DNA from: a virus
Taxonomy: Duplodnaviria > Caudoviricetes
DNA: 64,000 nucleotides
IMG/VR virus record: IMGVR_UViG_3300028275_000007
Reading direction: 5' to 3' (one strand)
The notes below the pieces were generated by a model. That model made no database searches, had not been told where the DNA came from, and saw nothing but the letters and a program-made list of their open reading frames with translations. Below, piece by piece: positions 17,745 through 64,000 of this stretch. A program made the position numbers and the translations under genes. Each line of letters starts with the position of its first letter. Position 1 is the stretch's first letter.

Positions 17745-17769
17745 AAAAAAGGCTACCGAAGTAGCCTTT
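17745..17769 (-). terminator. Terminator of tmRNA gene
   Basis: AAAGGCTAC-CGAA-GTAGCCTTT. Confidence 0.8.
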
Positions 17770-18085
17770 ACTATTTTCTGTTTCGAGGTATAGCTACCCA
17801 AAGCCTTAAGCGGCTAATGCGAAACGTGTATCGTTTGCGTTTACTTTTTTTGCTTCTTCGGCCGAGTTCCCCCAACCCTACGGGTTTCACATTCCCGAGC
17901 TGTCCACTTCGTTACTCATCACCCTGTCGAAACCATGACTGGCCCATTAGGGAGAACACTAGTATGACGTCTGCTACGCCGCGGCCGAAGCCCTTAGTAA
18001 CGGTTCTCTAATGCTCTCTCTGGTGGACCAGGCGGGAGTCGAACCCGCGTCCAGAATACCTTTCTCTCTGCTTCATACAGCAATA
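17770..18085 (-). ncRNA. ssrA: Circularly permuted (two-piece) tmRNA; tag (A)NDTRFALAA*
   Basis: Acceptor piece ends GGTTCGACTCCCGCCTGGTCCACCA at 18021; 75-nt spacer; coding piece starts GGGCCAGTCATGGTTTCGACAGGG at 17945; tag ORF 17838-17806. Confidence 0.9.
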
Positions 18086-18100
18086 ACTTATATTTAACAC

Positions 18101-18658
18101 TCATTCTTCATAAATGTCAATATCTTCATCTTCCCAAATTGTACCTTTTTTATCATAGGCTTGATAATAAGCTTCGTTTGGTTTGAGTATGCGCCAACCC
18201 TGATACTTGAGTCCTGCTAAGGTAGCTTCTTCTTTCTTTAGTAGATCGCAGATAATAAACGATGAGCCGCAGGCTCCTTCTACATTCTTAAATGGACTGT
18301 GTTTAAACTCGTTATTACTCAGAGCCTTGTGCATAGCACCACCCCAGTTAAAAATGATGCGAGTGATACCCAACTTTTGGTTGCGTAAACGAATCTTATC
18401 TATAAGTGAAAGAGTTGATAATGTAGCTTCGTTCTGTTCATTGATTGTTAACAAACATTCTTTGAACTTAAGGCTACCTTTAGTATGGCTGTTGTCAGGA
18501 GTTTCTTTGGTACTCCAAGCCATTTGTGCGTCAACGTGATTGACATAAAATGTTTCACCGTGTGTTTTAAGGACCCACATCGGAACGGTCTCATCTTCTA
18601 AGTGTTTTTTATTAAAATGGAACACTACATCCTTACAAGCATATTCAATCTATTGCAT
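18101..18658 (-). CDS. Hypothetical late protein with in-frame TAG at codon 3 (alternative start GTG 18625)
   Basis: AAGGAAAATAAA ATG CAA TAG ATT GAA TAT GCT TGT AAG GAT GTA GTG TTC..., in frame with the 174-aa ORF. Confidence 0.7.
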
Positions 18659-18672
18659 TTTATTTTCCTTTA

Positions 18673-18773
18673 AAAATGATAGTTTTTTTGTGTCAGGAAA
18701 CTATCAAACCCCGTGAGCGCAGCCCATCCTGTTTTCGCGTCAGCGGAGCCGGAGTATGGTTACAGGTCCGGCA
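18673..18773 (-). ncRNA. Candidate structured leader or small RNA behind a late promoter
   Basis: GCCGGA/TCCGGC stem whose loop CCTGT can pair with downstream ACAGG; GATAGTTT/AAACTATC hairpin; GC-rich non-coding. Confidence 0.5.
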
Positions 18774-18796
18774 AACTTATTTACACTTTACAATTT

Positions 18797-19564
18797 TTAT
18801 GCAAATATTTCAAGAGCTGTACCGCATTCTTGGCAAAATTTGCTGGTAGCTTTGTTCTGCTTACCGCAGGTCACACATTTTGGTTTGTGTTTGACTGTTA
18901 CTGCCTGTTTAACAGCTTCTCCACCCAAAATCTTAAACACCATAGAATGTTTAGTACTTTCTAATGCACCTACATAAGTAGTGGTAAACTTTTGCTCACT
19001 CTTGCTACCCGGAACGGTAATACCAACATCGTTAACTTGATTAACAAATGCCTGAGCAGATGCTGTACTATAACTATCCATAGTTGCAGAACAGGTTACT
19101 GATCCTGCTGGTGCAGCCCAATCTGCTGTAGATCCACGCAGAATTCCGCCTTGTGGGTAGATTTTATTATCGCCGTAATAGGCAGTATTAGTTGTCCAGG
19201 TAATTGGACGAACAGGCTGTTCGTATTGGAATTCGATTCTTACCAATCCGTCTTCAAGTTTGGCACCTCGGTGTTGCTCCACTGAGCCTGTTCTTTCGAT
19301 GAACTTGAACTTGTTGCCTTCTGTGAGATTGCCGTTTTTGACTGATCGCTCGAGATCGACTTCTTGTCCAGCGTTAATAACAATCCCACCAGGAACCATA
19401 TCGTCACCGTCAATATATACGTTAACGACAGCACGGGTCGTATGTAGATTCTTAAGTAGTATTGAATATTCTGATCCGAACGGAACATAAACTGTGTCCT
19501 TGAATTCTCTTAGGACTTTGCCTTTTACTTTAATGGCGGCGGCCATTTTACTTTCGTACATCAT
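18797..19564 (-). CDS. Hypothetical protein with C-terminal zinc ribbon
   Basis: CVTCGKQNKATSKFCQECG; AAGGAG RBS before MMYESK. Confidence 0.75.
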   Translation of the reverse strand: MMYESKMAAAIKVKGKVLREFKDTVYVPFGSEYSILLKNLHTTRAVVNVYIDGDDMVPGGIVINAGQEVDLERSVKNGNLTEGNKFKFIERTGSVEQHRGAKLEDGLVRIEFQYEQPVRPITWTTNTAYYGDNKIYPQGGILRGSTADWAAPAGSVTCSATMDSYSTASAQAFVNQVNDVGITVPGSKSEQKFTTTYVGALESTKHSMVFKILGGEAVKQAVTVKHKPKCVTCGKQNKATSKFCQECGTALEIFA

Positions 19565-19643
19565 GATTTCTCCTTTTACGGTACACACTCTAAGTACCTA
19601 ACATTTAAAGAGTGTTGGTTGTGGGACCTTCCCACGCATCTAT

Positions 19644-19880
19644 TTATAGATACTGTTCTATAAATGGATCTTCTTCTGGGAAATAATGCACATCGTACAT
19701 TATTCCGCCAATGTTGTATTCTGCACACCAGCTATGTTGATTATTAGTCTCTCTAACTGGTTCTGTCATTTGCAGCATTAACCAAACTCGATCGTGTTCA
19801 GCACCTTCTAGTCTACGTTTTGGTGGACCCATAATCTTACGGATAAATGCTTCTGCTTCTTCTTTGGTTTTAAACTGCAT
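19644..19880 (-). CDS. Hypothetical protein (start MQFKTK; the longer ORF-track start overlaps the tRNA)
   Basis: AAGGA before ATG 19880. Confidence 0.65.
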   Translation of the reverse strand: MQFKTKEEAEAFIRKIMGPPKRRLEGAEHDRVWLMLQMTEPVRETNNQHSWCAEYNIGGIMYDVHYFPEEDPFIEQYL

Positions 19881-19890
19881 ATAAATCCTT

Positions 19891-19966
19891 TGGTGCGCTA
19901 GGTGGGAATCGAACCCACGACACAAGAGGTTTAGAAGCTCCGGCTCTGCCACTAAGCTACTAGCGC
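19891..19966 (-). tRNA. tRNA with CUA anticodon (amber suppressor-like)
   Basis: GCGCTAG/CTAGCGC acceptor plus ACCA; D-arm GCTT/GAGC; anticodon arm GGAGC-TT CTA AA-CCTCT (31-39 mismatch); T-arm GTGGG-TTCGATT-CCCAC; 76 nt. Confidence 0.8.
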
Positions 19967-19974
19967 ATACGTTT

Positions 19975-20003
19975 ATTATGCTGCCATTAAGCAGTTAGGT
20001 CAA
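19975..20003 (-). promoter_or_regulatory. sigma70 promoter of the CUA tRNA
   Basis: TTGACC-17-CATAAT ending 8 nt before the tRNA. Confidence 0.65.
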
Positions 20004-20289
20004 CAGTTTCTTCTTCTTTTTGGCTAAGTTTATTTGGACGTAATGGGTCAAGCCAAGTGTCCGGGATGTATGCTTTGGGCGTATCGCCTAGCATATTTTG
20101 GAGTCCGTGGTCGGTACTAATCCACCAATAATGATCCGTAATTTGTGCCTTACATACAATGCCGCGAAAATCAAATTCTTCACCTTGTTTAAAGTGTCCA
20201 ATATAATTTTCTACCAAAACAGTTTTGCCTATGTTCTGAGGACGTAGGCTCATAATGATTTTGGCAATGTCACCTTGTTCACACTTCAT
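19987..20289 (-). CDS. Hypothetical protein
   Basis: 100-aa coupled ORF. Confidence 0.7.
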   Translation of the reverse strand: MKCEQGDIAKIIMSLRPQNIGKTVLVENYIGHFKQGEEFDFRGIVCKAQITDHYWWISTDHGLQNMLGDTPKAYIPDTWLDPLRPNKLSQKEEETVDLTA

Positions 20290-32917: not shown

Positions 32918-33310
32918 CTAGATTATGGTAATCCAGGTATTTTGATTTCCGTTGCGTGTTTGGAACGCTGCGGGAGTTATGTCAACAGAATTTTCTAATT
33001 GGTCAACAATAGGAACACCGTGAACATCGTCTTTTAAAAGTCCGCAGGGATCATTATCTTTTAAGAAAACATCTTCTCTTTCACAGTCAACTTCCCATAT
33101 CCAATAGGTTGCCTTACCTTTGATGTCGTCTGGTAATGAGCCTGTATACTTTTTTGGATCTCTTACCCATTCTACATTTGATCTCAATCCTATTGCCTGT
33201 AGCAGAGAATTAAAATTTGCCTGCTGTCCAATTTTAATAGGATCAGATTCCGATCTTGTCGAATTGGTACGAGTTATGTCTACTAGGGTTACTATCTTAT
33301 ATCGTGCCAT
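32918..33310 (-). CDS. Hypothetical late protein (ends in TAG)
   Basis: 130 aa; TAAATA upstream. Confidence 0.75.
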   Translation of the reverse strand: MARYKIVTLVDITRTNSTRSESDPIKIGQQANFNSLLQAIGLRSNVEWVRDPKKYTGSLPDDIKGKATYWIWEVDCEREDVFLKDNDPCGLLKDDVHGVPIVDQLENSVDITPAAFQTRNGNQNTWITII

Positions 33311-53794: not shown

Positions 53795-55117
53795 ATGCGT
53801 ACACAACCACAAGCAATTATTCAACGACTTGAAGCAGACAATAGTCGTCTTGCCAAAGAAGCTATCCTTGCAGAAGCAATGACGGAAGGCCTAGACGAGT
53901 TCTTCGAAGGCGTTCGTATGGCATTGGACAATCTTTATACTTTTGGTGTAAAGCAAGTTCCTACATCCGACAAGGACGGACAAGGACTAAGCTGGGATAA
54001 CTTCAAACAACTGGCAGAAAGCCTTTACCGTCGTGAGCTTACTGGTCACGCTGCTCGTGATGCTATTCAATTGGCTATGGATGTGGCTACTAAAGAACAA
54101 TGGAACGACTTTTATCGTCGTATCCTTATCAAAGACCTACGCTGTGGTGTAAGTGAAAAGACAGTGAACTCCGTGGCCAAAAAGTCTAAGAAAGATCAAT
54201 ATCGAGTTCCTGTGTTTGAATGCCAATTGAGTCACGATTCGGCCAATCACGAAGGCAAGCTCACAGGTACTAAAATTGTAGAACGTAAGTTGGATGGTGT
54301 TCGCTGTCTAACTGTCGTAGACTATGAAAACAAAACTGTGGTGCAGTATACTCGCAACGGCAAAGAGTTGGCTAACTTTAGTCACATCACAGACTATTTG
54401 AGCAACTTCATTGAAGAATTTGGACGCTCCTATGTCATTGACGGTGAAATTATGAGCAACAGCTTCCAAGACCTTATGAAGCAGGTACATCGCAAAGACA
54501 ATGTCTCAGCATCAGATGCTGTTCTCAATGTGTTTGATATTGTGCCCTTGTTTGAGTTTAAACAGGGTAAGAGCACAATGAAACAAAAGAGTCGTTCACA
54601 GTTCCTCAAGGGCTTTGAAAACATCTTTACAGATTCGGGCTTTATCCAAATTGTGCCACAGAAGACTTTTAATCTTGATTCAATGGTTGAAGAAATTGAA
54701 TTCAAAGACTATATGAAAGAAATGGTTGCAGCAGGCTACGAAGGTGTAATGATCAAAGATCCAAATGCTGTCTACGAATGTAAGCGTTCCACTGCCTGGC
54801 TCAAAATGAAACCCTTTATTGAAGTAAGTTTGAGTGTTACCAGCGTCGAAGAAGGTACAGGACGTAATGTGGGTAAGTTGGGTGCTATTGTATGTGAAGG
54901 AACTGATGATGGTAAAAGGATTGTGGTCAACTGCGGTTCAGGTTTTACAGATGAACAAAGAGCAGAATTTTGGGAAGCTAAGGATTCGCTCATTGGGCAG
55001 GTCGTGGAAGTCCGTGCAGATGCAGCGACTCGGAGCCAGGATAGTGAGGACATTTGGTCGCTACGGTTTCCGCGCTTCCTACGATTCCGAGGCTTTACAA
55101 AAGGTGAGAAAATCTAA
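53795..55117 (+). CDS. ATP-dependent DNA ligase
   Basis: ERKLDGVR, IDGEI, YEGVMIK, WLKMK, LRFPRF. Confidence 0.95.
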   Translation: MRTQPQAIIQRLEADNSRLAKEAILAEAMTEGLDEFFEGVRMALDNLYTFGVKQVPTSDKDGQGLSWDNFKQLAESLYRRELTGHAARDAIQLAMDVATKEQWNDFYRRILIKDLRCGVSEKTVNSVAKKSKKDQYRVPVFECQLSHDSANHEGKLTGTKIVERKLDGVRCLTVVDYENKTVVQYTRNGKELANFSHITDYLSNFIEEFGRSYVIDGEIMSNSFQDLMKQVHRKDNVSASDAVLNVFDIVPLFEFKQGKSTMKQKSRSQFLKGFENIFTDSGFIQIVPQKTFNLDSMVEEIEFKDYMKEMVAAGYEGVMIKDPNAVYECKRSTAWLKMKPFIEVSLSVTSVEEGTGRNVGKLGAIVCEGTDDGKRIVVNCGSGFTDEQRAEFWEAKDSLIGQVVEVRADAATRSQDSEDIWSLRFPRFLRFRGFTKGEKI

Positions 55118-55118
55118 T

Positions 55119-55358
55119 ATGAAAAAAGGTGCTATCAAAGATCTATGCTATGGCGGTATGCTAGAACTACTGAACAACCGCAACTACTACTATAAGAGTT
55201 CTGTGGGCAAAGACTATAGTCACCTTACTGATGATGGTAAACAGGCTGTGGTAGAGTTTATGGATATGATTGCCTGGAAGATGATCGAAGCAGAAGACAC
55301 TGATCTAGATCGTAGAGCCAAAGAACAGGTCCTAGAACAACTTAAAAAGAAAGACTGA
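55119..55358 (+). CDS. Hypothetical protein (start MKKGAIK)
   Basis: The upstream part of the ORF-track entry lies inside the ligase. Confidence 0.7.
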   Translation: MKKGAIKDLCYGGMLELLNNRNYYYKSSVGKDYSHLTDDGKQAVVEFMDMIAWKMIEAEDTDLDRRAKEQVLEQLKKKD

Positions 55359-55359
55359 T

Positions 55360-55626
55360 ATGAAAGAATTCTTTGGATGGATACGTTGGGTTTGGAACAA
55401 GCAGGAGACCTGGCAAAAGACCTTTCTTGTGGCCTTTTTCTTCCTGGGGGCTGGTATCAATGCCAGCGCCGAAGCTCAGAAGTATCTTTGGAGCATCAGC
55501 TCGATTATAATTGCATTTTGGCTGACCAAATGGTGCCTATGGGACGCATTTTGGGCATCGTGGGCTAAGTATAGAGAACATCGCAACGAACTATTAACAA
55601 CTATCAAGACATCGGACAAGGAGTGA
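55360..55626 (+). CDS. Small membrane protein
   Basis: Two hydrophobic W-rich segments. Confidence 0.7.
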   Translation: MKEFFGWIRWVWNKQETWQKTFLVAFFFLGAGINASAEAQKYLWSISSIIIAFWLTKWCLWDAFWASWAKYREHRNELLTTIKTSDKE

Positions 55627-55628
55627 TT

Positions 55629-55898
55629 ATGATTGAAAACGAATTTGAATATAACAACGAAGAAGAAGCAGAAGTTGCACAGATCAACTCTCTGATTATG
55701 AATATGAACGCTGTGGGTGCTCTACAGCGAGAACTGGCCAAACAGCGCAGCCAACCTTCAGCTGAGTTCTGCGAAGAATGTGGGGAAGATATTCCTGAAG
55801 CACGTAGGCAAGCGATTCCGGGTGTGCAGTTCTGTATTCACTGCCAGACTAAAATGGAACGCTTCAAAGCCAACTATCGACAGCCTGGTGCGAACTAA
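55629..55898 (+). CDS. DksA/TraR C4 zinc-finger protein
   Basis: CEECGEDIPEARRQAIPGVQFCIHCQ. Confidence 0.9.
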   Translation: MIENEFEYNNEEEAEVAQINSLIMNMNAVGALQRELAKQRSQPSAEFCEECGEDIPEARRQAIPGVQFCIHCQTKMERFKANYRQPGAN

Positions 55899-56427
55899 GG
55901 GTAATCACGTTACCCCATAGGTCCTCACAGCTTTGATCAAACAGCCATTCTGGGCCTAGATTCTGAGCCACTAGCCAGCTGTGTTTCTGACTCCAAGGCC
56001 CCTGCCCATTCATTTCTAATTCCAGCTGACCCGGGGCCCAGCTGGCAAAACCCATAATCATTCTAAAGTGTCTAGGGAAGTCACCGTCGGCCAAGTGATG
56101 AAACATTGCTTCATTGCTGGTCATAGCCCAGGCCGAAGTTATCATAACAGATCCCGAAATCACCCACTCTGCTGAATGCAGCATCCATAGGCTCTGAGGG
56201 CTCATAGGGCCACCCCAGTGTAGGGGTAAATTGGGTAGGCCCCCAACGTCTAGGTCTATGCCGTCTGCTATGTCGTTGAGAGTTTGGTCTAGGGGTCTAT
56301 TAACACAGAGCGCAAATGAGCCCTGGGGGTTAGTATGTGTGACCATTAATACTGAGTTCCGGAATCTGGTGTCCGGCATTGTTGGGGGTGCTATGAGTAG
56401 GTCAGTTGGACGTACCCTGGTAGACAT
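55864..56427 (-). CDS. YqgE/AlgH family protein
   Basis: LLIAPP.MPD.RF..SV, WGGP, GFASWAPGQLE.E. Confidence 0.88.
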   Translation of the reverse strand: MSTRVRPTDLLIAPPTMPDTRFRNSVLMVTHTNPQGSFALCVNRPLDQTLNDIADGIDLDVGGLPNLPLHWGGPMSPQSLWMLHSAEWVISGSVMITSAWAMTSNEAMFHHLADGDFPRHFRMIMGFASWAPGQLELEMNGQGPWSQKHSWLVAQNLGPEWLFDQSCEDLWGNVITLSSHQAVDSWL

Positions 56428-56428
56428 A

Positions 56429-56917
56429 TCAACTCCAGTCTGGGAGCGGACCCCCGTACTTTTTACCCAAGATCTTCTTGCCGCGGACCTTGACACGCTC
56501 TGAGCCAATCTTGTGGCTCTTGCCCCCTTCGCGACTGCGATAGCCCTGTGACTTACAGCTGGCTAGGTTTGATGCACCCAGGGCTGAGTCTGGCTTACCT
56601 GATGTGCAGAGTGCTCTGGACGCGGGTTCTTCCGCGACGGCTTCATCATCACTCTGGACGCCATACATGATCTCATCGTTTAGAGGAAAGTCCAATTCCA
56701 TAAAACGCTCGGGTAGTTCTGAAGTATCGATGATGTAGTCTAGCTCATCATCTGTAGGGTGTTCTTTCATTAGGACCTTGGCAGCTTCATCGTGACCCTT
56801 GGCATTGTTCCAAATGTTGATGCCATAGTGGTTGTCATAGAGTGCGGCCACAGCGTCCATGACCTTGTGATAGTCACAGGTAAAGATATTTTCTTTAAGT
56901 ATTTCGTTGATTCTCAT
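56429..56917 (-). CDS. Late protein with capsid-targeting-like N-terminus and basic Cys-containing tail
   Basis: MRINEILKE; acidic middle; CTSGK..SCKSQGYRSR. Confidence 0.7.
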   Translation of the reverse strand: MRINEILKENIFTCDYHKVMDAVAALYDNHYGINIWNNAKGHDEAAKVLMKEHPTDDELDYIIDTSELPERFMELDFPLNDEIMYGVQSDDEAVAEEPASRALCTSGKPDSALGASNLASCKSQGYRSREGGKSHKIGSERVKVRGKKILGKKYGGPLPDWS

Positions 56918-57147
56918 GCTAATTTAGCCCCTAACATCACAGCAGCCACTAGGTAGTTTTTTACTTCTAGATTGTCTGCTTCCTTGTGGAACTCATCTGC
57001 TGTGATTAGGTCACGCAGAAGTTCCTGATATTCTGATTCTTTGAGCTCGCCCGACTCGTACATTTGGGTAATCTCTAGAGCGTATTTTGCACGTTCACTA
57101 GCCCAACTAGGTGCGTTTTCTATCACGTACTGTAACTGTTCTTTCAT
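56914..57147 (-). CDS. Hypothetical protein
   Basis: Coupled ORF. Confidence 0.7.
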   Translation of the reverse strand: MKEQLQYVIENAPSWASERAKYALEITQMYESGELKESEYQELLRDLITADEFHKEADNLEVKNYLVAAVMLGAKLA

Positions 57148-57524
57148 TACCATCTCCCTAGTACGACTTCAGCAGCTCGTTGTGCTTCCTGAGTCAATAG
57201 CTTCTTTTTAACTGTGCAGTAGCCCCGAGTGCCCTCGCCACGTTCTACCCACTCATCTACCTGTGTTTTAATGGGCCGGACCACACGTAGAACATCTGCT
57301 TGTAGACGACCCTTAGACTGTGAATATAGTTCAAATCTGCGTAGATCCTCTTGTACTCGTAGGACCTGTGCTCGCTGTGGTTCTTCACAGTTGATCTGCT
57401 CGATCTTCAATCTAGCCTCAACTATATAGTGACTTTGATTTGCATCCCAAAATGAAGGAATCCACTGAGTGACAGTGGCACAACCAGATAACCAAAACAC
57501 CGCAGAGAGAATAATTAGGCGCAT
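57147..57524 (-). CDS. Lipoprotein
   Basis: MRLIILSAVFWLSGC lipobox. Confidence 0.75.
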   Translation of the reverse strand: MRLIILSAVFWLSGCATVTQWIPSFWDANQSHYIVEARLKIEQINCEEPQRAQVLRVQEDLRRFELYSQSKGRLQADVLRVVRPIKTQVDEWVERGEGTRGYCTVKKKLLTQEAQRAAEVVLGRW

Positions 57525-57531
57525 ATGATAT

Positions 57532-57759
57532 TTACCTAGGAAACTCAGATCGCAAGACCGCAGAGCCAAATCTACGTTCAAACTCTAGACTGCGATCTCG
57601 CTCCGAAGGTATCGTCCTCCAGGGCTCAATGTCAATGACCACACTGGCACCGTCCGAAGCTCGTATCAGTGTAGATCTATTAGCGAGATCTGCGACCCAA
57701 AGTTCTATGTCAGGAATCACTGATTCATCGATGATTTTAAAATAACGTAGTTCATTCAT
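57532..57759 (-). CDS. Hypothetical protein
   Basis: 75 aa; TAAATA upstream. Confidence 0.6.
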   Translation of the reverse strand: MNELRYFKIIDESVIPDIELWVADLANRSTLIRASDGASVVIDIEPWRTIPSERDRSLEFERRFGSAVLRSEFPR

Positions 57760-57840
57760 AGTCTAATATTTACCCAAACGAGCTTGGGATAATTCACTGG
57801 CTGCGAAGCAGCAGCGCAGCAAAAATCCGGCAGCGATTTT

Positions 57841-58047
57841 TTATACATAGTCTTCGTTTCTCCTACGCTCTAATAAAGGCCACGCACAGATCAAGAATAG
57901 TTCCGCAGAGGGCGAGACCCAAAAGTCTATGGAGTCTGCTCTAATACTAATATGGCCGCCCGAACGCTGTACATATGCCCAAACAATCTCCGAATCATAG
58001 TCAACGTCAGAGCGTAATCTATAACAAAATAATCTAGTATCTCGCAT
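57841..58047 (-). CDS. Hypothetical protein
   Basis: 68 aa, divergent from the next gene. Confidence 0.55.
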   Translation of the reverse strand: MRDTRLFCYRLRSDVDYDSEIVWAYVQRSGGHISIRADSIDFWVSPSAELFLICAWPLLERRRNEDYV

Positions 58048-58066
58048 ACCTTGGTTAAATATCCCT

Positions 58067-58324
58067 ATGCAGACAACGGTCTATTACTTAGTGCATAAAG
58101 ATACTCTGAGACGCCTAAAATGGTACAGAACTCTTGCTGGTGCTCGTATAGCACAGAGATCGCGTAATCATAGACTGGGTTTCATAACTCGTATTGAACG
58201 TGTATATATGTTTGATAACTGGGAAGTAGAGTTGTGTCGTAACATAGACGGAGACATACTAGAAGCAACTTACTGCATAGTAGAAGATACTATAGAGAGT
58301 GAGGAGTTATTTACAAATGGATAA
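58067..58324 (+). CDS. Hypothetical protein
   Basis: 85 aa; TAAATA upstream. Confidence 0.6.
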   Translation: MQTTVYYLVHKDTLRRLKWYRTLAGARIAQRSRNHRLGFITRIERVYMFDNWEVELCRNIDGDILEATYCIVEDTIESEELFTNG

Positions 58325-58397
58325 TCGAACACAAGCACTGGTAGTGAGCATAGCGGTAGTATGTGTATACTATGTTTACTATATACTAAGTCATTAA
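58317..58397 (+). CDS. Small TM peptide (26 aa)
   Basis: MDNRTQALVVSIAVVCVYYVYYILSH; coupled to the previous ORF. Confidence 0.4.
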   Translation: MDNRTQALVVSIAVVCVYYVYYILSH

Positions 58398-58398
58398 A

Positions 58399-59197
58399 GG
58401 CCCCGCTGCGCTATAGTGACATATACGTATACGCATAATAAGTCTAGCGTGAGCACGCTCAATGTGCGTATATACGCTGGAAAAAGCTCAGTAAGTGTGA
58501 TTTACTGACCCCCAAGATGCGTATAGAGGTCTAGCGACCTGGTGGGGATTGGAAAAGGGTGCAGAAAAGTAGTAGAAAGTGTGATAAAGTGTGAAATTGT
58601 GTGACCATTTGAGCATAGCCTCTCATACCACCGTTCTAGACTTTTAGTCTACTATAAAATTTACAGTAGATCTCCCTAGTTCGAACCGTTTGACCGTTTT
58701 CTAGACACGAATTCACTCTAGAACTAGCGTTCTAGACTGTTCTAACGACCTATATACAGTGGCCCCGCTGCGAGTGATTCTAGATATATACTGTATACTC
58801 AGGAGCGATCTGATGTTAACCTATATATGCTGTGCAACTCTGCCCTTGGTCCTCATACTCATATACGAATCTATATACAGTAAGAGTTGGCTAGAGCGCC
58901 GTCATGCTCGTATAGTGCTTGCCTGTGGTCTAGCCATTATCCTGAGTCTCTGCTTATAGTGGCCCCGCTGCGTAGGTAACATAATGAAAGACTCAAAAGA
59001 CATAGCTGAATGGGTTCTGCGTGAGATCGCGGGAGTTAATCCCTATACTAGTCAAGACAAGACTCTGGCATTCATTTGGGCCACGGGCTTTCTGGCACGC
59101 TGCGTAGCTGAGATGATCTGGCGGGACAATCACAACTATAAGATCTTTGCAGCAATTCGTGAACGTGCAGCACGGAAACTGGGGAAGGCCCCGCTGC
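58399..59197 (+). repeat. Repeat-rich switch region: 4x GGCCCCGCTGC, clustered TCTAGA, tandem AAAGTGTGA, hairpins
   Basis: Motif copies at 58399, 58761, 58961, 59187; five TCTAGA within ~58630-58785. Confidence 0.8.
58813..58959 (+). CDS. Small membrane protein ending in TAG, in frame with next ORF
   Basis: AGGAGCGA RBS; two hydrophobic stretches. Confidence 0.55.
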   Translation: MLTYICCATLPLVLILIYESIYSKSWLERRHARIVLACGLAIILSLCL

Positions 59198-59211
59198 AGA
59201 ATACTGACTAA
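58984..59211 (+). CDS. Hypothetical protein
   Basis: 75 aa. Confidence 0.65.
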   Translation: MKDSKDIAEWVLREIAGVNPYTSQDKTLAFIWATGFLARCVAEMIWRDNHNYKIFAAIRERAARKLGKAPLQNTD

Positions 59212-59299
59212 TTTGCCAAAAAGAGTTGACAAGTTGGGGTTCTGCTCGTATAATATACATATGCTTAAGAAACGAGCACTAACTAGGAGCAGAGAATCA

Positions 59300-59563
59300 A
59301 TGACACTTCCAGATGAGCGGTATCGTAGTGTTAAGACCGCAGCAGAGTTTCTTCAACGTCTAGCGGGTGGGCATTATGCCCGTGTGCCCAAGGCAGTTCG
59401 TGAGGAAGCTCGCAGCATCTTACGACACTATCCTTCATCGTGGGATCTAGATCAAATTGAACGAGCAGCGCCTCACGTTATGCAGCAGCGTATGGAACCC
59501 CTGCACAGGATGGTTGCTGCGTACAATCCAGAAGTAACACAACCTTTAGAGAATCGAGATTAA
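59300..59563 (+). CDS. Conserved phage hypothetical protein
   Basis: MTLPDERYRSV...RVPKAVREEARSILRHYPS. Confidence 0.8.
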   Translation: MTLPDERYRSVKTAAEFLQRLAGGHYARVPKAVREEARSILRHYPSSWDLDQIERAAPHVMQQRMEPLHRMVAAYNPEVTQPLENRD

Positions 59564-59579
59564 CTACTAGTAAGACGTC

Positions 59580-59664
59580 GCGACTGTGGTGAAATAGGTA
59601 GACACAAGGGACTTAAAATCCCTCGCAGCAATGCATACCAGTTCGATTCTGGTCAGTCGCACCA
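59580..59664 (+). tRNA. tRNA-Leu(UAA)
   Basis: Cloverleaf with long variable arm, loop CT TAA AA, CCA end. Confidence 0.92.
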
Positions 59665-59671
59665 TTTAAAT

Positions 59672-59748
59672 CACGCATTAGCTCAGTTGGATAGAGCAAC
59701 AGCCTTCTAAGCTGTGGGTCAGGGGTTCGAATCCCTTATGCGTGGCCA
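59672..59748 (+). tRNA. tRNA-Arg(UCU)
   Basis: CACGCAT/ATGCGTG acceptor, ACAGC-CT TCT AA-GCTGT, CCA. Confidence 0.93.
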
Positions 59749-59752
59749 GTTA

Positions 59753-59830
<78 letters not shown>

Positions 59831-59963
59831 AGCTGCGAGCCATCTAGTCACTGGCGCAGAGTGCAGCAGCACGGGAGAAACCCTATAGCCTAGTAAACTA
59901 TAGGGTTTTTTCTTGTCCAAAATGCTGTTTGCTTGTATAATATGCATTTAAACAAGGACAGCA

Positions 59964-60092
59964 ATGACAGAACTACAGCACGTCTTCTACGCTGCTTTAG
60001 CACGTATACAGCACTACACGGATCTCGACGACGAAGCTCAGCAAGACGCAATTGCTGCACTCGCGCAGCTAATCGAGGATCACGTCAAATAA
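59964..60092 (+). CDS. Small hypothetical protein (42 aa)
   Basis: AAGGA RBS; MTELQHVFYAAL... Confidence 0.55.
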   Translation: MTELQHVFYAALARIQHYTDLDDEAQQDAIAALAQLIEDHVK

Positions 60093-60177
60093 CCCTAGGC
60101 CCTCTAGGGTCTTTAACAAATTGGTTGACATTTTGGCAGTTCGATCGTACAATATACATATGTTGAAGGAGCGAGCA

Positions 60178-60510
60178 ATGACCACTGTACAACGAAAGAA
60201 GCGTGTAGATCGCAATCACATCATCTACGAACTGCGTGTTAATGGTCAAAACTACATTGGCGTCACTGCCAAGACAGAGTCAACTATTAATAAGTCAGTG
60301 TTGGCACGTGCCGCGAAACACTTCTATCGTGCCAAAACAGAGTCGAAGAACTGGCTCTTGTGTCAAGAACTGCGCAAGCTCGCGAACAAGAACGAGATTG
60401 AAGTACTTGTACATGAGGTCATCCGCGGCAAAGCGGCTGCACACCGTAGGGAAGTAGAAATCCGTAGAGCTGTTAACCCTACACTGAACACGGACATTCG
60501 AGGTGATTGA
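60178..60510 (+). CDS. GIY-YIG-like protein
   Basis: IIYELRVNGQNYIGVT...E...PTLN. Confidence 0.6.
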   Translation: MTTVQRKKRVDRNHIIYELRVNGQNYIGVTAKTESTINKSVLARAAKHFYRAKTESKNWLLCQELRKLANKNEIEVLVHEVIRGKAAAHRREVEIRRAVNPTLNTDIRGD

Positions 60511-60561
60511 CACCTTGGGTGTTCGGCAGTATAATACAGGTATTGTAACGTTAAGGAGCGA

Positions 60562-60741
60562 ATGATGACTAACCCGATTCCACATAGCAATATTTGGCAC
60601 ACTCCCGCAGATCTCAACGAGCTGCACGATATAATCAATCAGTTCACAGGCCAGGATGCTGCGCTGGCTGCACACGTGATGATGCTGACCCTGAACACCT
60701 GCCACAAATTGGTTGCTGATTCTATCAAGGAGACTGCATGA
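60562..60741 (+). CDS. Small early protein (59 aa)
   Basis: Own promoter and AAGGAG RBS; MMTNPIPHSNIWHTP... Confidence 0.7.
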   Translation: MMTNPIPHSNIWHTPADLNELHDIINQFTGQDAALAAHVMMLTLNTCHKLVADSIKETA

Positions 60742-61106
60742 TGCGTTACTGGGACGAACTGCTGCGCGAACAGCACAATGGGGTCACTGTGATCGTGGAC
60801 AAGACCTGGGAAGATTGCACTATCCGCGATCTCTTTGATGATACCTGCTGTGATGTAGAGGACTTAGAGCGCAAGGTTAACCGGGGCGATTTGGATTGGT
60901 TTATGCTCAGGGCTCGTGTCATGTTCAATGACATGGAACTGGGATCGTCGATCTGCGGTGGCTACCTCTACGAAGATGCTCGCGAGGTTCTCAGGGACGG
61001 TTGTGCTGCTGATCTGATCTGGCAAGCAGAGGAAGAAGCTAAGAAACGATTACCCGAGCTAATTGAAGGGTTATTGCGTGTAGAGGTTGACAAATTGGCT
61101 GCGTGA
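60738..61106 (+). CDS. Early hypothetical protein
   Basis: Coupled; acidic. Confidence 0.75.
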   Translation: MMRYWDELLREQHNGVTVIVDKTWEDCTIRDLFDDTCCDVEDLERKVNRGDLDWFMLRARVMFNDMELGSSICGGYLYEDAREVLRDGCAADLIWQAEEEAKKRLPELIEGLLRVEVDKLAA

Positions 61107-61144
61107 GCATACAATAGAGACTTAGTAACACAAAGGAGCGCGAA

Positions 61145-61489
61145 ATGAAACAGACAATTTTTAGCACTAGCGGCGACGGCTACTGGTCTAACGTTGCAAA
61201 GCCTGTACACGTTACAGATATGCGACTTGCATATGTAAACGACGAAAAAGACTTCGGCGAGCTGCGTGTATACTTTAACACTAAGTTTTGGGATGTAGAC
61301 ACAGACGGTCTCATTTACACAGACGAGGGATTTATGACAGACTTGCGCAACTTCCTCGCGCTGCAGGGTCTTAACAACTTAGACATAGACTATAGCGAGC
61401 AAGGGATGCAAGGCGACAATTACGTTAGCTTAGACGTAGGCGCTGCGTTTATTAGTGCGTGGGATGCAAAGTTTAATTTGTTTGCATAA
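61145..61489 (+). CDS. Early hypothetical protein
   Basis: Own promoter and RBS. Confidence 0.8.
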   Translation: MKQTIFSTSGDGYWSNVAKPVHVTDMRLAYVNDEKDFGELRVYFNTKFWDVDTDGLIYTDEGFMTDLRNFLALQGLNNLDIDYSEQGMQGDNYVSLDVGAAFISAWDAKFNLFA

Positions 61490-61564
61490 AAACAACAGGG
61501 GTTGACAGCCCCTGCTTTTGACAGTATAATAAACACTTCAACAACGCAACTAAGGAGCGAAACT

Positions 61565-61918
61565 ATGGAAGCGCAAGCACGTGAGTATTTTGTCCGTCGT
61601 CTTAACGAAGTAGCACAAGAGAAGGTGCAGGCTAAGGCTGTAGAACTTTACGGCGCAAGTGGCCGTCCAGAACAGCCTACGTGGGGTATGGTCTTTGAGG
61701 GCATCCGCTCAGGCGAGATTACCCTTAAAGCAGACAAGGTAGACTACACGGGTCCTTACCTCAACCCTACGGACGTGGAGTGGCCTGCTATGGAAGCAAA
61801 GAAAGCAGAGCTGGAAGCATATCGCAAGTTGGTAGCCGCTGAGAAGCAACGGGCTATGGACGCTGTCTATTTGGACGAGAGCGCACAAGAAGCCCTTAAG
61901 GCATTTGAAGCAATTTAA
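61565..61918 (+). CDS. Early hypothetical protein
   Basis: Start MEAQAR after AAGGAGCGA. Confidence 0.8.
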   Translation: MEAQAREYFVRRLNEVAQEKVQAKAVELYGASGRPEQPTWGMVFEGIRSGEITLKADKVDYTGPYLNPTDVEWPAMEAKKAELEAYRKLVAAEKQRAMDAVYLDESAQEALKAFEAI

Positions 61919-61980
61919 GGGGTTGACAGGGCCTACGGGCCCTGTTATAATATAGGCTTAGCAACACACAGGAGCGAACA

Positions 61981-62421
61981 ATGGCTACACGAAGCACTAT
62001 TGCAATGGAGCAACCCGACGGCCGCGTAATGCAGATCTACTGCCACTGGGACGGCTACATTGATCACAACGGTCAAATTCTCAGCGAACATTATACAGAT
62101 CGTGCCAAGGTCCTGGCACTCATGCTCTTGGGATCGATCAGCTCGCTGCGTCCTGAGATCGGTGAGCCTCACGACTTCGATGCTCGCTATACCAACGAAG
62201 ATCACCGCAACAACTGGACCTGTGCCTACGGTCGAGATCGTGGTGAGAGCGATACTGAAGCTGCTGTTTTCGCTAACTACGAAGCCTACGTCAAGGATCA
62301 CCAGTACGAGGAATACGAGTATATCTTCCGTTCGGACGATCAGTGGTATGTTTCCGAATACGGACGCCCCTACCGCTTGCTCGCTGCTGTGTTGATGGAA
62401 GCAGAAACCCTAGAAGACTAA
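61981..62421 (+). CDS. Conserved early phage protein
   Basis: MATRSTIA...IYCHWDGY....G..L...Y; EYEYIF. Confidence 0.8.
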   Translation: MATRSTIAMEQPDGRVMQIYCHWDGYIDHNGQILSEHYTDRAKVLALMLLGSISSLRPEIGEPHDFDARYTNEDHRNNWTCAYGRDRGESDTEAAVFANYEAYVKDHQYEEYEYIFRSDDQWYVSEYGRPYRLLAAVLMEAETLED

Positions 62422-62496
62422 GGGTTATTTTTAGGGGTTGACAGGTTGGCTGTTTGATGGTACAATAGAGTCATAGTTAAACAAAACGGAGCGAAG

Positions 62497-63603
62497 ATGC
62501 AGATTACATTCACTGAAGGCTGGTACAACATCAAGGGTCAACCTGTTAACGTTGCAGGACTTACTTTTAATCTTGTAGAAGATTACAAAGTGTCTAAGAA
62601 CGGCGACGGCTATGTTACTGTTGATGGTACTAGTGTAGAGGGCTTCCCTGAGCGCAATATCCGAATCAAGTGCCGTCAGGGCGACTATGCTGTCGCAGGT
62701 ACTGTTCAAGCAACACAAATTCCACAAGGGGTATCAATGCTGACTGCTTTAAAGTCAAAGAGTGCCAAAGGCGCAGAGGTCACCGATTTCACTCAGATCA
62801 AGGTGCCCGATACTGCTGTAGCACACGAGTCCGACGAGGACATCATCGAACGCACTCGTCTGCGCTTTGACATCCTCAAAGATATGACTAAAGCTGTCAA
62901 GAATGGTGATGTACGTGCTATGATCGTCACAGGCCCTCCAGGTGTGGGCAAATCCTTTGGCGTTGAAGAAGTACTTGCCAAAGACGATCTGTTTGATATG
63001 ATGGGTCAGCGTAAGCCCAAATATGAGATCGTCAAGGGCGCAATGTCAGCCATTGGTCTGTACACTAAGCTCTACAAATACTCAGACGCTAAGAACATTC
63101 TTGTGTTCGACGACTGTGACTCAATTCTTTTGGACGACATTGCACTTAACATTCTTAAGGCCGCTTTGGACTCTAGCAAGAAGCGTACCATTTCGTGGAA
63201 CACTGACAGCCGTCTGCTTCGTTCAGAAGGAGTGCCAGATCGTTTCGAGTTCAAGGGTGGTGCTATCTTTATCACTAACTTGAAGTTTGAGAACGTTCGC
63301 TCTAAGAAACTGCAGGAGCACTTGGCGGCCCTAGAGTCACGCTGTCACTATATTGATCTGCGTATGGACACAGATCGCGAGAAGGTACTGCGTATCAAGC
63401 AGATTGTCAAGGATGGTATGTTGGATAGCTACGAGCTGGAGGACATTGCCAAAGATGAGGTTGTCAGCTTCATCGACGACAATCGCGCTACTATGCGTGA
63501 ACTGAGCCTGCGTACTGTGCTCAAAGTCGCAGACCTGCGCAAGAGCTTCCCATCTAACTGGCAGAATATGGCCAAGGTCACTGTTATGAAAGGAATTGCA
63601 TAA
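62497..63603 (+). CDS. AAA+ ATPase
   Basis: GPPGVGKS Walker A, LVFDDCD Walker B, FITN sensor, ALESR Arg finger. Confidence 0.85.
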   Translation: MQITFTEGWYNIKGQPVNVAGLTFNLVEDYKVSKNGDGYVTVDGTSVEGFPERNIRIKCRQGDYAVAGTVQATQIPQGVSMLTALKSKSAKGAEVTDFTQIKVPDTAVAHESDEDIIERTRLRFDILKDMTKAVKNGDVRAMIVTGPPGVGKSFGVEEVLAKDDLFDMMGQRKPKYEIVKGAMSAIGLYTKLYKYSDAKNILVFDDCDSILLDDIALNILKAALDSSKKRTISWNTDSRLLRSEGVPDRFEFKGGAIFITNLKFENVRSKKLQEHLAALESRCHYIDLRMDTDREKVLRIKQIVKDGMLDSYELEDIAKDEVVSFIDDNRATMRELSLRTVLKVADLRKSFPSNWQNMAKVTVMKGIA

Positions 63604-63833
63604 TGGATTACCGTCCGCTGACCTGTCAGTGGATTGGGCCCGAACAGGACCCCCGCAAGGGTTCTGTTCACTACTGCGGTAAGCCCAATCTAACTGGAAA
63701 GAGCTACTGTGCTGACCACTTCTACAAAGTATATCAGGGTGGCACTTCAGTAAATGGAAAACGAGCAGAAAAGCTCTTGCAAAAGGAAATCGAGTCTGTT
63801 AAACTAGCAGAAGAGATAGGAGAATTACTATGA
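63603..63833 (+). CDS. Small Cys/His zinc-finger protein (GcrA C-terminus-like)
   Basis: TCQWIG....HYCGKP...SYCADH. Confidence 0.6.
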   Translation: MDYRPLTCQWIGPEQDPRKGSVHYCGKPNLTGKSYCADHFYKVYQGGTSVNGKRAEKLLQKEIESVKLAEEIGELL

Positions 63834-64000
63834 GTACCGTAATTAAGATCGCATTGGCATTCTTGCTGATCGTTGTATTGTTGGCGATTGGACCGTGGCT
63901 TGTGATCTGGTCACTGAACACGCTGTTCCCTAGCCTGGCTATTGAATTTGGTTTGGCTACTTGGGCTGCTGTTGTGATCCTAGGAACTTTCTTTCGAGCG
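63830..64000 (+). CDS. Membrane protein, truncated by window end
   Basis: MSTVIKIALAFLLIVVLLAIGPWLVIWSLNTLFP... Confidence 0.7.
   Translation, partial: MSTVIKIALAFLLIVVLLAIGPWLVIWSLNTLFPSLAIEFGLATWAAVVILGTFFRA

Follow-up and report, generated by a model that had tools for sequence, protein, structure and literature searches.

A conserved in-frame amber codon near the start of a gene linked to a tRNA(CUA) gene in a T4-like phage of standard genetic code and its relatives

In phages recoded to code 15 or code 4, suppressor transfer RNAs (tRNAs) occur together with in-frame stop codons in many late genes (bioRxiv 10.1101/2021.08.26.457843). Many standard-code phages also hold suppressor tRNAs, for which no target is known, and the genome announcement of one such phage could identify no target genes (PMC9022506). 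Here we describe a gene of a large T4-like phage from river water (IMG/VR record IMGVR_UViG_3300028275_000007; Duplodnaviria, Caudoviricetes) that has an in-frame amber codon at codon 3. The gene lies on the minus strand at 18101-18658, and 1.2 kb upstream this strand also has a gene for a tRNA with the anticodon CUA, tRNA(CUA), so that the gene might be a specific and conserved target adjoining its suppressor. All positions refer to the window, which is the whole stretch of 64,000 nucleotides that was analysed. Among the products of the window are ribonucleotide reductase, virion proteins and DnaK, and Gp23 is encoded on related contigs. In the phage collection searched, neither near-identical DNA nor a near-identical cultured phage was found. 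We call an in-frame stop codon in the first few codons a gate, and a gene that has one gated. In the literature searched, no standard-code phage was described in which a gene adjoining a suppressor tRNA has a single, fixed gate close to its start.

Conservation of the amber codon at the start of the gene

The gene and the tRNA consist of the following elements.

18666-18670, minus strand: Shine-Dalgarno (SD) sequence AAGGA, 7-nt spacer to the ATG (read from the sequence)
18650-18658, minus strand: ATG CAA TAG, that is, the start codon (18658-18656), a single sense codon and the in-frame amber codon (18650-18652)
18101-18649, minus strand: body of the gated gene, 182 codons and a TGA (homologue alignment, AlphaFold models)
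19891-19966, minus strand: tRNA with anticodon CUA (amber suppressor), encoded CCA, 5-nt variable loop, lysine-tRNA-like (ARAGORN; Rfam, 56 bits)

After the TAG the sequence continues with ATT GAA TAT GCT TGT AAG GAT GTA GTG, the GTG being at 18625, and the frame stays open until the TGA at 18103-18101. The open reading frame (ORF) thus has 182 codons counted from the codon following the TAG and 174 codons counted from the GTG. A first-pass annotation, made from the letters of the window, had pointed out the SD sequence, the ATG CAA TAG that opens an in-frame ORF and the tRNA of 76 nt. All these coordinates were confirmed, and the tRNA was called by ARAGORN and matched the tRNA family of Rfam.

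To follow the amber codon among relatives, viral contigs were searched with the protein, which gave 32 loci with 66-78% identity, and with a family alignment, from which 80 of 409 relatives were kept (48-62% identity to the reference). Removal of duplicates left 75 distinct loci, of which 71 are gated, and counts out of 71 refer to these. In all 71 the in-frame stop codon is TAG, with no case of TAA or TGA. The TAG lies 2-4 codons past the ATG (1-3 codons between), an SD-like 4-mer stands 6-10 nt ahead of the ATG, and the base 3' of the TAG is a purine (A in 64 loci, G in 7), again in 71/71. The nearby two-fold codons are near saturation (TTC/TTT 35/36, CAT/CAC 28/42, AAA/AAG 33/38, GAC/GAT 40/31). 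Since these neighbouring codons are near saturation, a neutral transition from TAG to TAA would be common, and the absence of TAA therefore indicates that selection acts for TAG itself. Judging from this comparison, a chance origin of ATG-CAA-TAG is excluded, as the TAG is at the same place in every distinct gated relative.

The body of the gene is under strong purifying selection, with a mean column identity of 76% and synonymous variation, and synonymous variation is also seen in the codons from the TAG to a conserved FHFNK block. The TAG was found in more than 100 independently assembled contigs. A check of the sequence at the TAG itself left it standing: contigs from independent river metagenome and metatranscriptome libraries cover the locus with the codon unchanged, the RNA contigs being no proof of transcription or of RNA ends. 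No homologue of the gated gene in the family examined ends in TAG. Distant ungated homologues start with M-(0-4 residues)-[IV]E[LI]xCK, exactly where the gated copies resume, and their residue at the gate position is T, R, N or the start Met. One database protein has a Q at the gate site, which is a TAG translated under a code with TAG=Q.

In 693 kb of related loci, the only other genes with a gate are one PTH2-like gene, described below, and a homing endonuclease with a copied start. In this second case an ORF for a GIY-YIG/NUMOD3 homing endonuclease has been inserted directly behind a copied gated start (M-x-TAG-IEY...) (L041:3329-3997, the same in L091, and L110:3311-3997). The endonuclease ORF has as its stop codon the very TAG by which the gene downstream is gated. 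It is hence amber-gated as well, and read-through would fuse both proteins.

Gene callers truncate or miss such gated genes, and public callers put the start of this protein at the GTG at 18625. We therefore considered whether the first codons might form a mini-ORF, with ribosomes that stop at the UAG and reinitiate either on the AUU next to it or eight codons further along, on the GTG, and with the tRNA(CUA) unrelated to the gene. The codon following the TAG is indeed ATT, ATC or ATA in 56/71 loci, and the GTG that public callers choose in the window has an AAGGA 4 nt upstream. However, this AAGGA consists merely of Lys-Asp codons, and the codon at 18625 is GTG in just 40/71 loci, being GTC, GTT or GTA in the other 31, so that the objection that homologues all start at the GTG was not borne out. 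The codon after the TAG is GTA, GTT, AAA, ACT, AAC or AAT in 15 loci. Between the TAG and the FHFNK block there is no ATG, GTG or TTG in 28/71 loci, and three loci (L046, L057 and L105) have no start-like codon whatever there. Moreover, any stop codon would serve to end a mini-ORF and TAA is the usual one in the window (61 of 91 non-overlapping ORFs of at least 70 codons), yet the gate is TAG in 71/71. Reinitiation also leaves unexplained the linkage to tRNA(CUA) and the pairing of TGA with UCA in phage Atu_ph07 and of TAG with CUA in phage Phosso, which are described in the next section.

The stretch between the TAG and the GTG (residues 2-12) forms the first beta strand of the N-terminal domain in AlphaFold models, with a predicted local distance difference test (pLDDT) score of 87 in the model of the whole protein and 96 in that of the domain. 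By alignment and by model, the sequence after the TAG is coding and structural. The GTG was rejected as the true start, since the codon is not conserved in 31/71 loci and the residues upstream of it are conserved and structural. Reinitiation after a mini-ORF was rejected as a general mechanism because of the loci that lack a start-like codon and the invariant TAG, and we consider it unlikely as an explanation of the gate.

The linked tRNA and the match between stop codon and anticodon

Homologues of the tRNA(CUA) were aligned. In 54 distinct sequences, 92.9% of the cells pair and compensatory changes are seen in 19 of 21 pairs, which none of 500 shuffles matched, and no slid register of the alignment came close to the observed pairing. 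G1-C72, G18, U33-C34-U35-A36-A37, the T loop and the encoded CCA end are invariant in 54/54. The anticodon loop is 7 nt long and includes U33 and a purine at 37, and the D arm is highly variable among relatives. The 31-39 pair is non-standard in 34/54, so that the anticodon stem is mostly 4 bp long. In other systems, stems of this length have been connected with the reading of stop codons (PMC13092985), and the short stem here is a possible lead in the same direction.

ARAGORN found an upstream tRNA(CUA) on the same strand in 52/71 gated loci, and a covariance model built on the family added 11 with odd D arms. With both tools together, about 63/71 gated loci have a same-strand tRNA(CUA) no more than 4 kb upstream, and two further loci have one 3.3 kb and 52 kb away. 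In 11 cases at most 152 nt separate the 5' end of the tRNA from the first Phe codon of FHFNK downstream, so that the tRNA abuts the gene. According to the alignment and the positions of these tRNAs, selection maintains the tRNA(CUA) as a tRNA, and it is linked to the gated gene. About a sixth of the tRNA(CUA) genes, with unusual or short D arms, are missed by ARAGORN (L014, L039, L042, L053, L057, L058, L067, L092, L097, L110 and L116); these misses, at least 11, are due to the great variability of the D arm.

The nearest isoacceptors are phage tRNA-Lys with the anticodons CUU and UUU. Lys is the best match for 35 of 57 tRNA(CUA), in a comparison set with few Lys tRNAs, and the top non-CUA matches of the covariance model are Lys(CUU), with 77.8 and 66.4 bits. 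A single base change turns CUU into CUA. U35 and A73 are identity elements for LysRS. From this likeness, the residue inserted at the UAG is likeliest to be lysine. ARAGORN labels the tRNA as tRNA-Pyl, which was rejected. The label comes from the anticodon alone, and the Pyl type of architecture is absent: the tRNA has a variable loop of 4-6 nt, a conserved GG in the D loop, a T loop with GGTTCGA and an anticodon stem of 4-5 bp, whereas tRNA-Pyl needs a 3-nt loop, a 6-bp stem and no G18G19 or T-psi-C consensus.

The arrangement is also found with genes of the PTH2 family of peptidyl-tRNA hydrolases and in cultured phages. In the viral contig L073, an ungated copy of the family comes right after a PTH2-like gene that starts with ATG AAA TAG (L073:3631-4005), and a tRNA(CUA) lies 1.6 kb upstream. 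The PTH2-like protein matches PF01981 over nearly the whole profile, with an E-value of 1e-3, which falls short of the curated cut-off. Database homologues of it have a Q at the third position, which is probably a TAG translated under a code with TAG=Q.

In the cultured jumbo phage Phosso of Sinorhizobium (L146, PV764938.1), a PTH2 gene (E 2e-16) is the first in a string of three genes in which stops overlap starts. PTH2 is followed by gp268 and then by a third protein that has the N-terminal domain of the gated family at its C terminus. The conserved N terminus of the Phosso PTH2 extends upstream to an SD-preceded ATG AAG TAT TAG (L146:5082-5153), and 4.6 kb upstream the same strand has a tRNA(CUA). 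This tRNA is annotated as 'tRNA-Undet'. It is followed, no more than two genes on, by a class II aminoacyl-tRNA synthetase core of 250 aa without an anticodon-binding domain (Pfam tRNA-synt_2b, E 1.9e-12; tRNA and synthetase region, L146:171983-173142), which is a candidate for a dedicated charging enzyme of the suppressor. In Agrobacterium phage Atu_ph07 (L148), the same three-gene string opens with ATG ATT GGC GAA CAC TTT TGA, and the sole suppressor tRNA of this phage has the anticodon UCA according to its authors (PMC6102473). In the T4-like Rhizobium phage RHph_I1_18, the N-terminal domain occurs alone and has an in-frame TAG after ATG AGT GAG TTC ATG (L002:562-810). A tRNA(CUA) lies 12 nt downstream, and a tRNA-Lys(CUU) and a two-piece transfer-messenger RNA (tmRNA) are within 5 kb. 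The gene of RHph_I1_18 is unannotated. In the PTH2 genes of Phosso and Atu_ph07 (minus strand, upstream of AUZ95035.1), the in-frame stop has led to annotated starts that lie too far into the gene.

The gate thus has the stop codon that fits the suppressor anticodon: TAG goes with CUA in the window, in about 63/71 relatives, in RHph_I1_18 and in Phosso, and TGA goes with UCA in Atu_ph07. Such covariation of sequences is difficult to account for if the tRNA does not decode the gate. The gated family lies downstream of a gated PTH2 in L073, Phosso and Atu_ph07. G006, a near-complete genome, has the gated protein and no PTH2, and G001 has a PTH2-like gene that is ungated. No homologue of the middle gene of the jumbo-phage operon was found in the clade of the window. 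The gated family and PTH2 appear to be partners rather than variants of each other.

We propose that ribosomes would initiate at the SD-preceded ATG of the gated gene and that at codon 3 the phage tRNA(CUA) would compete with release factor 1 (RF1) for the UAG. If the tRNA wins, the full two-domain protein would be made, with an output that scales with the success of the tRNA. If RF1 wins, just a dipeptide would be released. With a stop at codon 3-5, failure would be cheap and the output might be a direct read-out of suppression. On the comparative evidence, it is likely that the full-length protein of 18101-18658 (minus strand) is made only through suppression of the UAG by the phage tRNA(CUA) of 19891-19966, probably as lysine.

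Several points weigh against this proposal. No tRNA(CUA) was found in two gated contigs, G001 (L037; 330 kb, about 93% complete) and G003 (L061; 27% complete), where the gated copy sits within arrays of 26-31 tRNA genes. Ungated copies in L056, L073 and L118 likewise lie behind a tRNA(CUA), and therefore the gate alone does not account for the linkage. AUU and AUC are weak start codons, and following the TAG in most loci they might allow some reinitiation. The proposal of lysine comes from likeness to phage tRNA-Lys, and we infer the expression, the charging and the suppressor activity of the tRNA from its sequence. Finally, the gated protein has no match in Pfam, PHROGs, a PDB sequence profile or a Foldseek search of PDB.

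The two gated contigs in which no tRNA(CUA) was detected would also fit leaky read-through, in which near-cognate host tRNAs read the UAG at a low level in its UAG-A context and the tRNA(CUA) has some other use. A purine 3' of a TAG is a context that favours read-through, and all the gated loci have one. However, the great majority of the gated loci do have a same-strand tRNA(CUA) within 4 kb, in many cases abutting the gene. TGA is at least as leaky as TAG, yet it is unused in these loci and occurs only in the phage with a TGA-reading suppressor. We regard leaky read-through as quite unlikely.

The gene could also be one of many in a phage that is turning, or has turned, TAG into a sense codon in the manner of code 15. 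The 91 ORFs of the window end in TAA 61 times, in TGA 27 times and in TAG only 3 times. This depletion of TAG as a terminator, with a suppressor tRNA present, fits a proposed path to recoding (bioRxiv 10.1101/2021.08.26.457843), and some gene callers translate the relatives with TAG=Q. However, scans of the window for ORFs joined by a TAG and for starts of the form SD-ATG-(1-4 codons)-TAG gave no other credible gene, capsid-related and structural genes included, and the 693 kb of relatives are alike. Two real genes of the window still terminate at TAG, and the TAG is at one fixed site in one gene over deep divergence, unlike drift after 'detoxification'. With one gated gene in 64 kb and two others in 693 kb, whole-genome recoding was rejected for the DNA examined, and we consider recoding very unlikely. 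The first-pass annotation was right that the remaining window uses the standard code. It had also spoken of selected late genes being gated, which does not hold, as only one gene is gated here and the structural genes of the window have no in-frame TAG. The only credible genes of the window that end in TAG are at 502-891 and 32918-33310, both on the minus strand, and read-through would add 16 and 59 codons to them.

A sequencing or assembly error or a decaying pseudogene, for which nothing speaks beyond the presence of the stop codon, was rejected as hardly conceivable given the same codon in the many independent contigs and in the river DNA and RNA libraries and the strong purifying selection.

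The gated protein and the neighbouring elements

The gated protein consists of an N-terminal beta domain (residues 1-80) with the motif FHFNKKH...PMW...TKETPDN.HTKGS and a C-terminal alpha/beta domain. The AlphaFold model has a pLDDT of 78.5 for the whole protein and of 93.1 for the N-terminal domain. A Pfam search with 17 family members gave nothing at E-values up to 1. In VIA the C-terminal domain reached Z scores of no more than 5.4, with generic ACT/RRM-like ferredoxin folds, and the N-terminal domain no more than 3.5, with Foldseek E-values above 1. Matches in AFDB clusters were unnamed viral and bacterial barrels of 80 aa, with only weak RRM-like matches, and in the ESM Atlas only unnamed proteins were matched, with nothing usable for function. 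Homology of the gated protein to PTH2 (PF01981) was rejected, since there was no Pfam match, the hhalign probability was 0.1% and PTH2 was absent from the fold matches. The genomic company of the gene (tRNA, PTH2 and tmRNA) is the sole pointer of the protein to translation, and from this company we infer that it may act in translation termination or ribosome rescue.

The other elements around the gene and the tRNA are as follows.

19975-20003, minus strand: sigma-70-like promoter candidate, TTGACC-17-CATAAT, matching at 10 of 12 positions and ending 8 nt before the 5' end of the tRNA
19644-19880, minus strand: ORF of 78 aa between the tRNA and the zinc-ribbon gene, with a weak match to phrog_16617
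18797-19564, minus strand: protein of 255 aa with a C-terminal zinc ribbon (Pfam Zn_Ribbon_1, E 3.9e-6)
18778-18783, minus strand: TAAATA, a motif like the T4-type late promoter, 125 nt before the ATG
17746-18134, minus strand: two-piece (circularly permuted) tmRNA with the tag ANDTRFALAA (ARAGORN; Rfam tmRNA_permuted, 111.7 bits at 17806-18082, and beta_tmRNA, 118.7 bits)

Two regulatory elements had been proposed in the first-pass annotation and stood in part. A promoter of its own had been assigned to the tRNA, and the TTGACC-17-CATAAT is present, but such sites are no commoner than in shuffles (9 found in the region, 7.3 expected). A TAAATA late promoter and a structured leader had been placed before the gated gene. 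The TAAATA is present, but the leader was rejected as structured, since its folding energy is like that of shuffles (z = -1.27). No Rfam family matched the leader region in a search of 18600-20100 at E-values up to 1. The TAAATA of a TATAAATA-like late promoter of the T4 type occurs upstream in 38/70 loci, most often at 23-37 nt from the ATG, while 8.7% of background windows have it. Judging from this motif, expression of the gated gene may depend on late transcription as well as on an active suppressor.

The zinc-ribbon protein is near the gene in 30/75 distinct loci, where the tRNA and the gene mostly flank it, and is thus a frequent but not an obligatory neighbour. Its neighbours in the Atlas are all viral and without a named function. 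The ORF of 78 aa is not kept in most related loci. In contigs from two RNA libraries, 18776 is directly linked to 19870, so that 1093 bases with the zinc-ribbon ORF and the 78-aa ORF are omitted. The joint is short, with 27 nt on one side. The joint probably derives from a related strain in which the tRNA is nearer to the gene.

The tmRNA gene abuts the stop codon of the gated gene. A permuted tmRNA is present in the flanks of 12 of the first 32 loci, several of which are duplicates, and in about 8 distinct loci over both scans. The tag peptides of the tmRNAs in related loci are far longer, with 26-30 residues. The tRNA, the zinc-ribbon protein and the tmRNA are the only recurrent elements near the gene, and the other neighbours are ordinary T4-like or auxiliary genes. 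By comparison of these loci, the tRNA and the gated gene make up a conserved cassette, often with the zinc-ribbon protein and a two-piece tmRNA and elsewhere with a PTH2 that is likewise gated.

Two further observations were made elsewhere in the window. At 59580-59830 there is a tRNA cluster (Leu-UAA, Arg-UCU and Met-CAU). The coding strand changes within 54000-64000, where the G+C content climbs from about 0.39 to 0.44-0.48.

Possible roles of the gate and comparison with known systems

Suppressor read-through of a single gene in a standard-code phage, which was the interpretation of the first-pass annotation, is strongly supported by the comparison of relatives; the timing switch put forward with it, of an early tRNA and a late gene, would be a reading of motifs. 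A pure timing switch would add little, because a late promoter would already set the timing, and a lock, a sensor or a feedback role might serve equally well. By analogy with the in-frame UGA of prfB, the gate may act as a sensor of, or a lock on, suppression activity. It could be a sensor that sets a level as in prfB, a lock against synthesis without the phage tRNA, or a means of tying the fate of the gene to that of the tRNA.

As a speculation, the protein might handle what results from read-through, for instance peptidyl-tRNA or ribosomes beyond a TAG stop. A phage tmRNA beside an amber suppressor would make functional sense, because read-through of messages that end in TAG would give non-stop complexes. 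We tentatively suggest a 'stop-codon regulon' of large phages, which might consist of a suppressor tRNA, one or two start-gated clients (the beta-domain protein, PTH2 or both) and often a tmRNA. The gate would gauge the suppressor against the release factor, and the clients would act on termination, on the turnover of peptidyl-tRNA or on ribosome rescue. The presence of a gate on two unrelated families that travel with tmRNA and PTH2 suggests a dedicated module that manipulates termination. If true, such a regulon would be a self-referential circuit that seizes the end of translation, and it would give the suppressor tRNAs of standard-code phages a first concrete client. The idea could be tested directly in three phages available in culture, those of Rhizobium, Sinorhizobium and Agrobacterium, and the compact natural pair of tRNA and leader could serve as a translational switch.

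New here are a client family that is unrelated to PTH2, the physical link of this family to PTH2 clients, the contrast of TAG/CUA and TGA/UCA, the lysine-like origin of the tRNA and the recurrent tmRNA neighbour. Among known systems, the mutant suppressors supE, supF and T4 psu1 are cloverleaf tRNAs with a CUA anticodon that insert at UAG, as would the tRNA described here. However, they are laboratory-selected mutant alleles without a dedicated client, whereas the tRNA(CUA) is a conserved wild-type gene with a fixed adjoining client. The gated PTH2 genes of Phosso, Atu_ph07 and L073 have the same architecture, with a same-strand suppressor tRNA, an SD-preceded ATG and a stop in the first 3-7 codons, while the gated protein of the window belongs to a family unrelated to PTH2. 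In prfB, the gene of RF2, the in-frame UGA is at codon 26. As might be the case here, its early stop sets a release factor against another decoding event, and the outcome controls how much of the product is made. In prfB, however, the event is a +1 frameshift and the product is the sensed release factor, whereas here it would be suppression by a dedicated tRNA.

The code-15 phages, which include crAss-like and Lak phages and read TAG as Gln (bioRxiv 10.1101/2021.08.26.457843, PMC9523058), share with this phage a phage tRNA(CUA), the depletion of TAG as a terminator and presumably a standard-code host. In both, a protein whose gene has an in-frame TAG would need suppression to be made, and the idea of suppression as regulation is common to the two. 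In code-15 phages tens of structural and lysis genes are affected, whereas here the TAG is in one gene, at codon 3-5 and beside the tRNA, and the structural genes follow the standard code. The suppressor of this phage resembles tRNA-Lys and not tRNA-Gln. Unlike a stage of drift, the arrangement described here is fixed in more than 70 diverged lineages.

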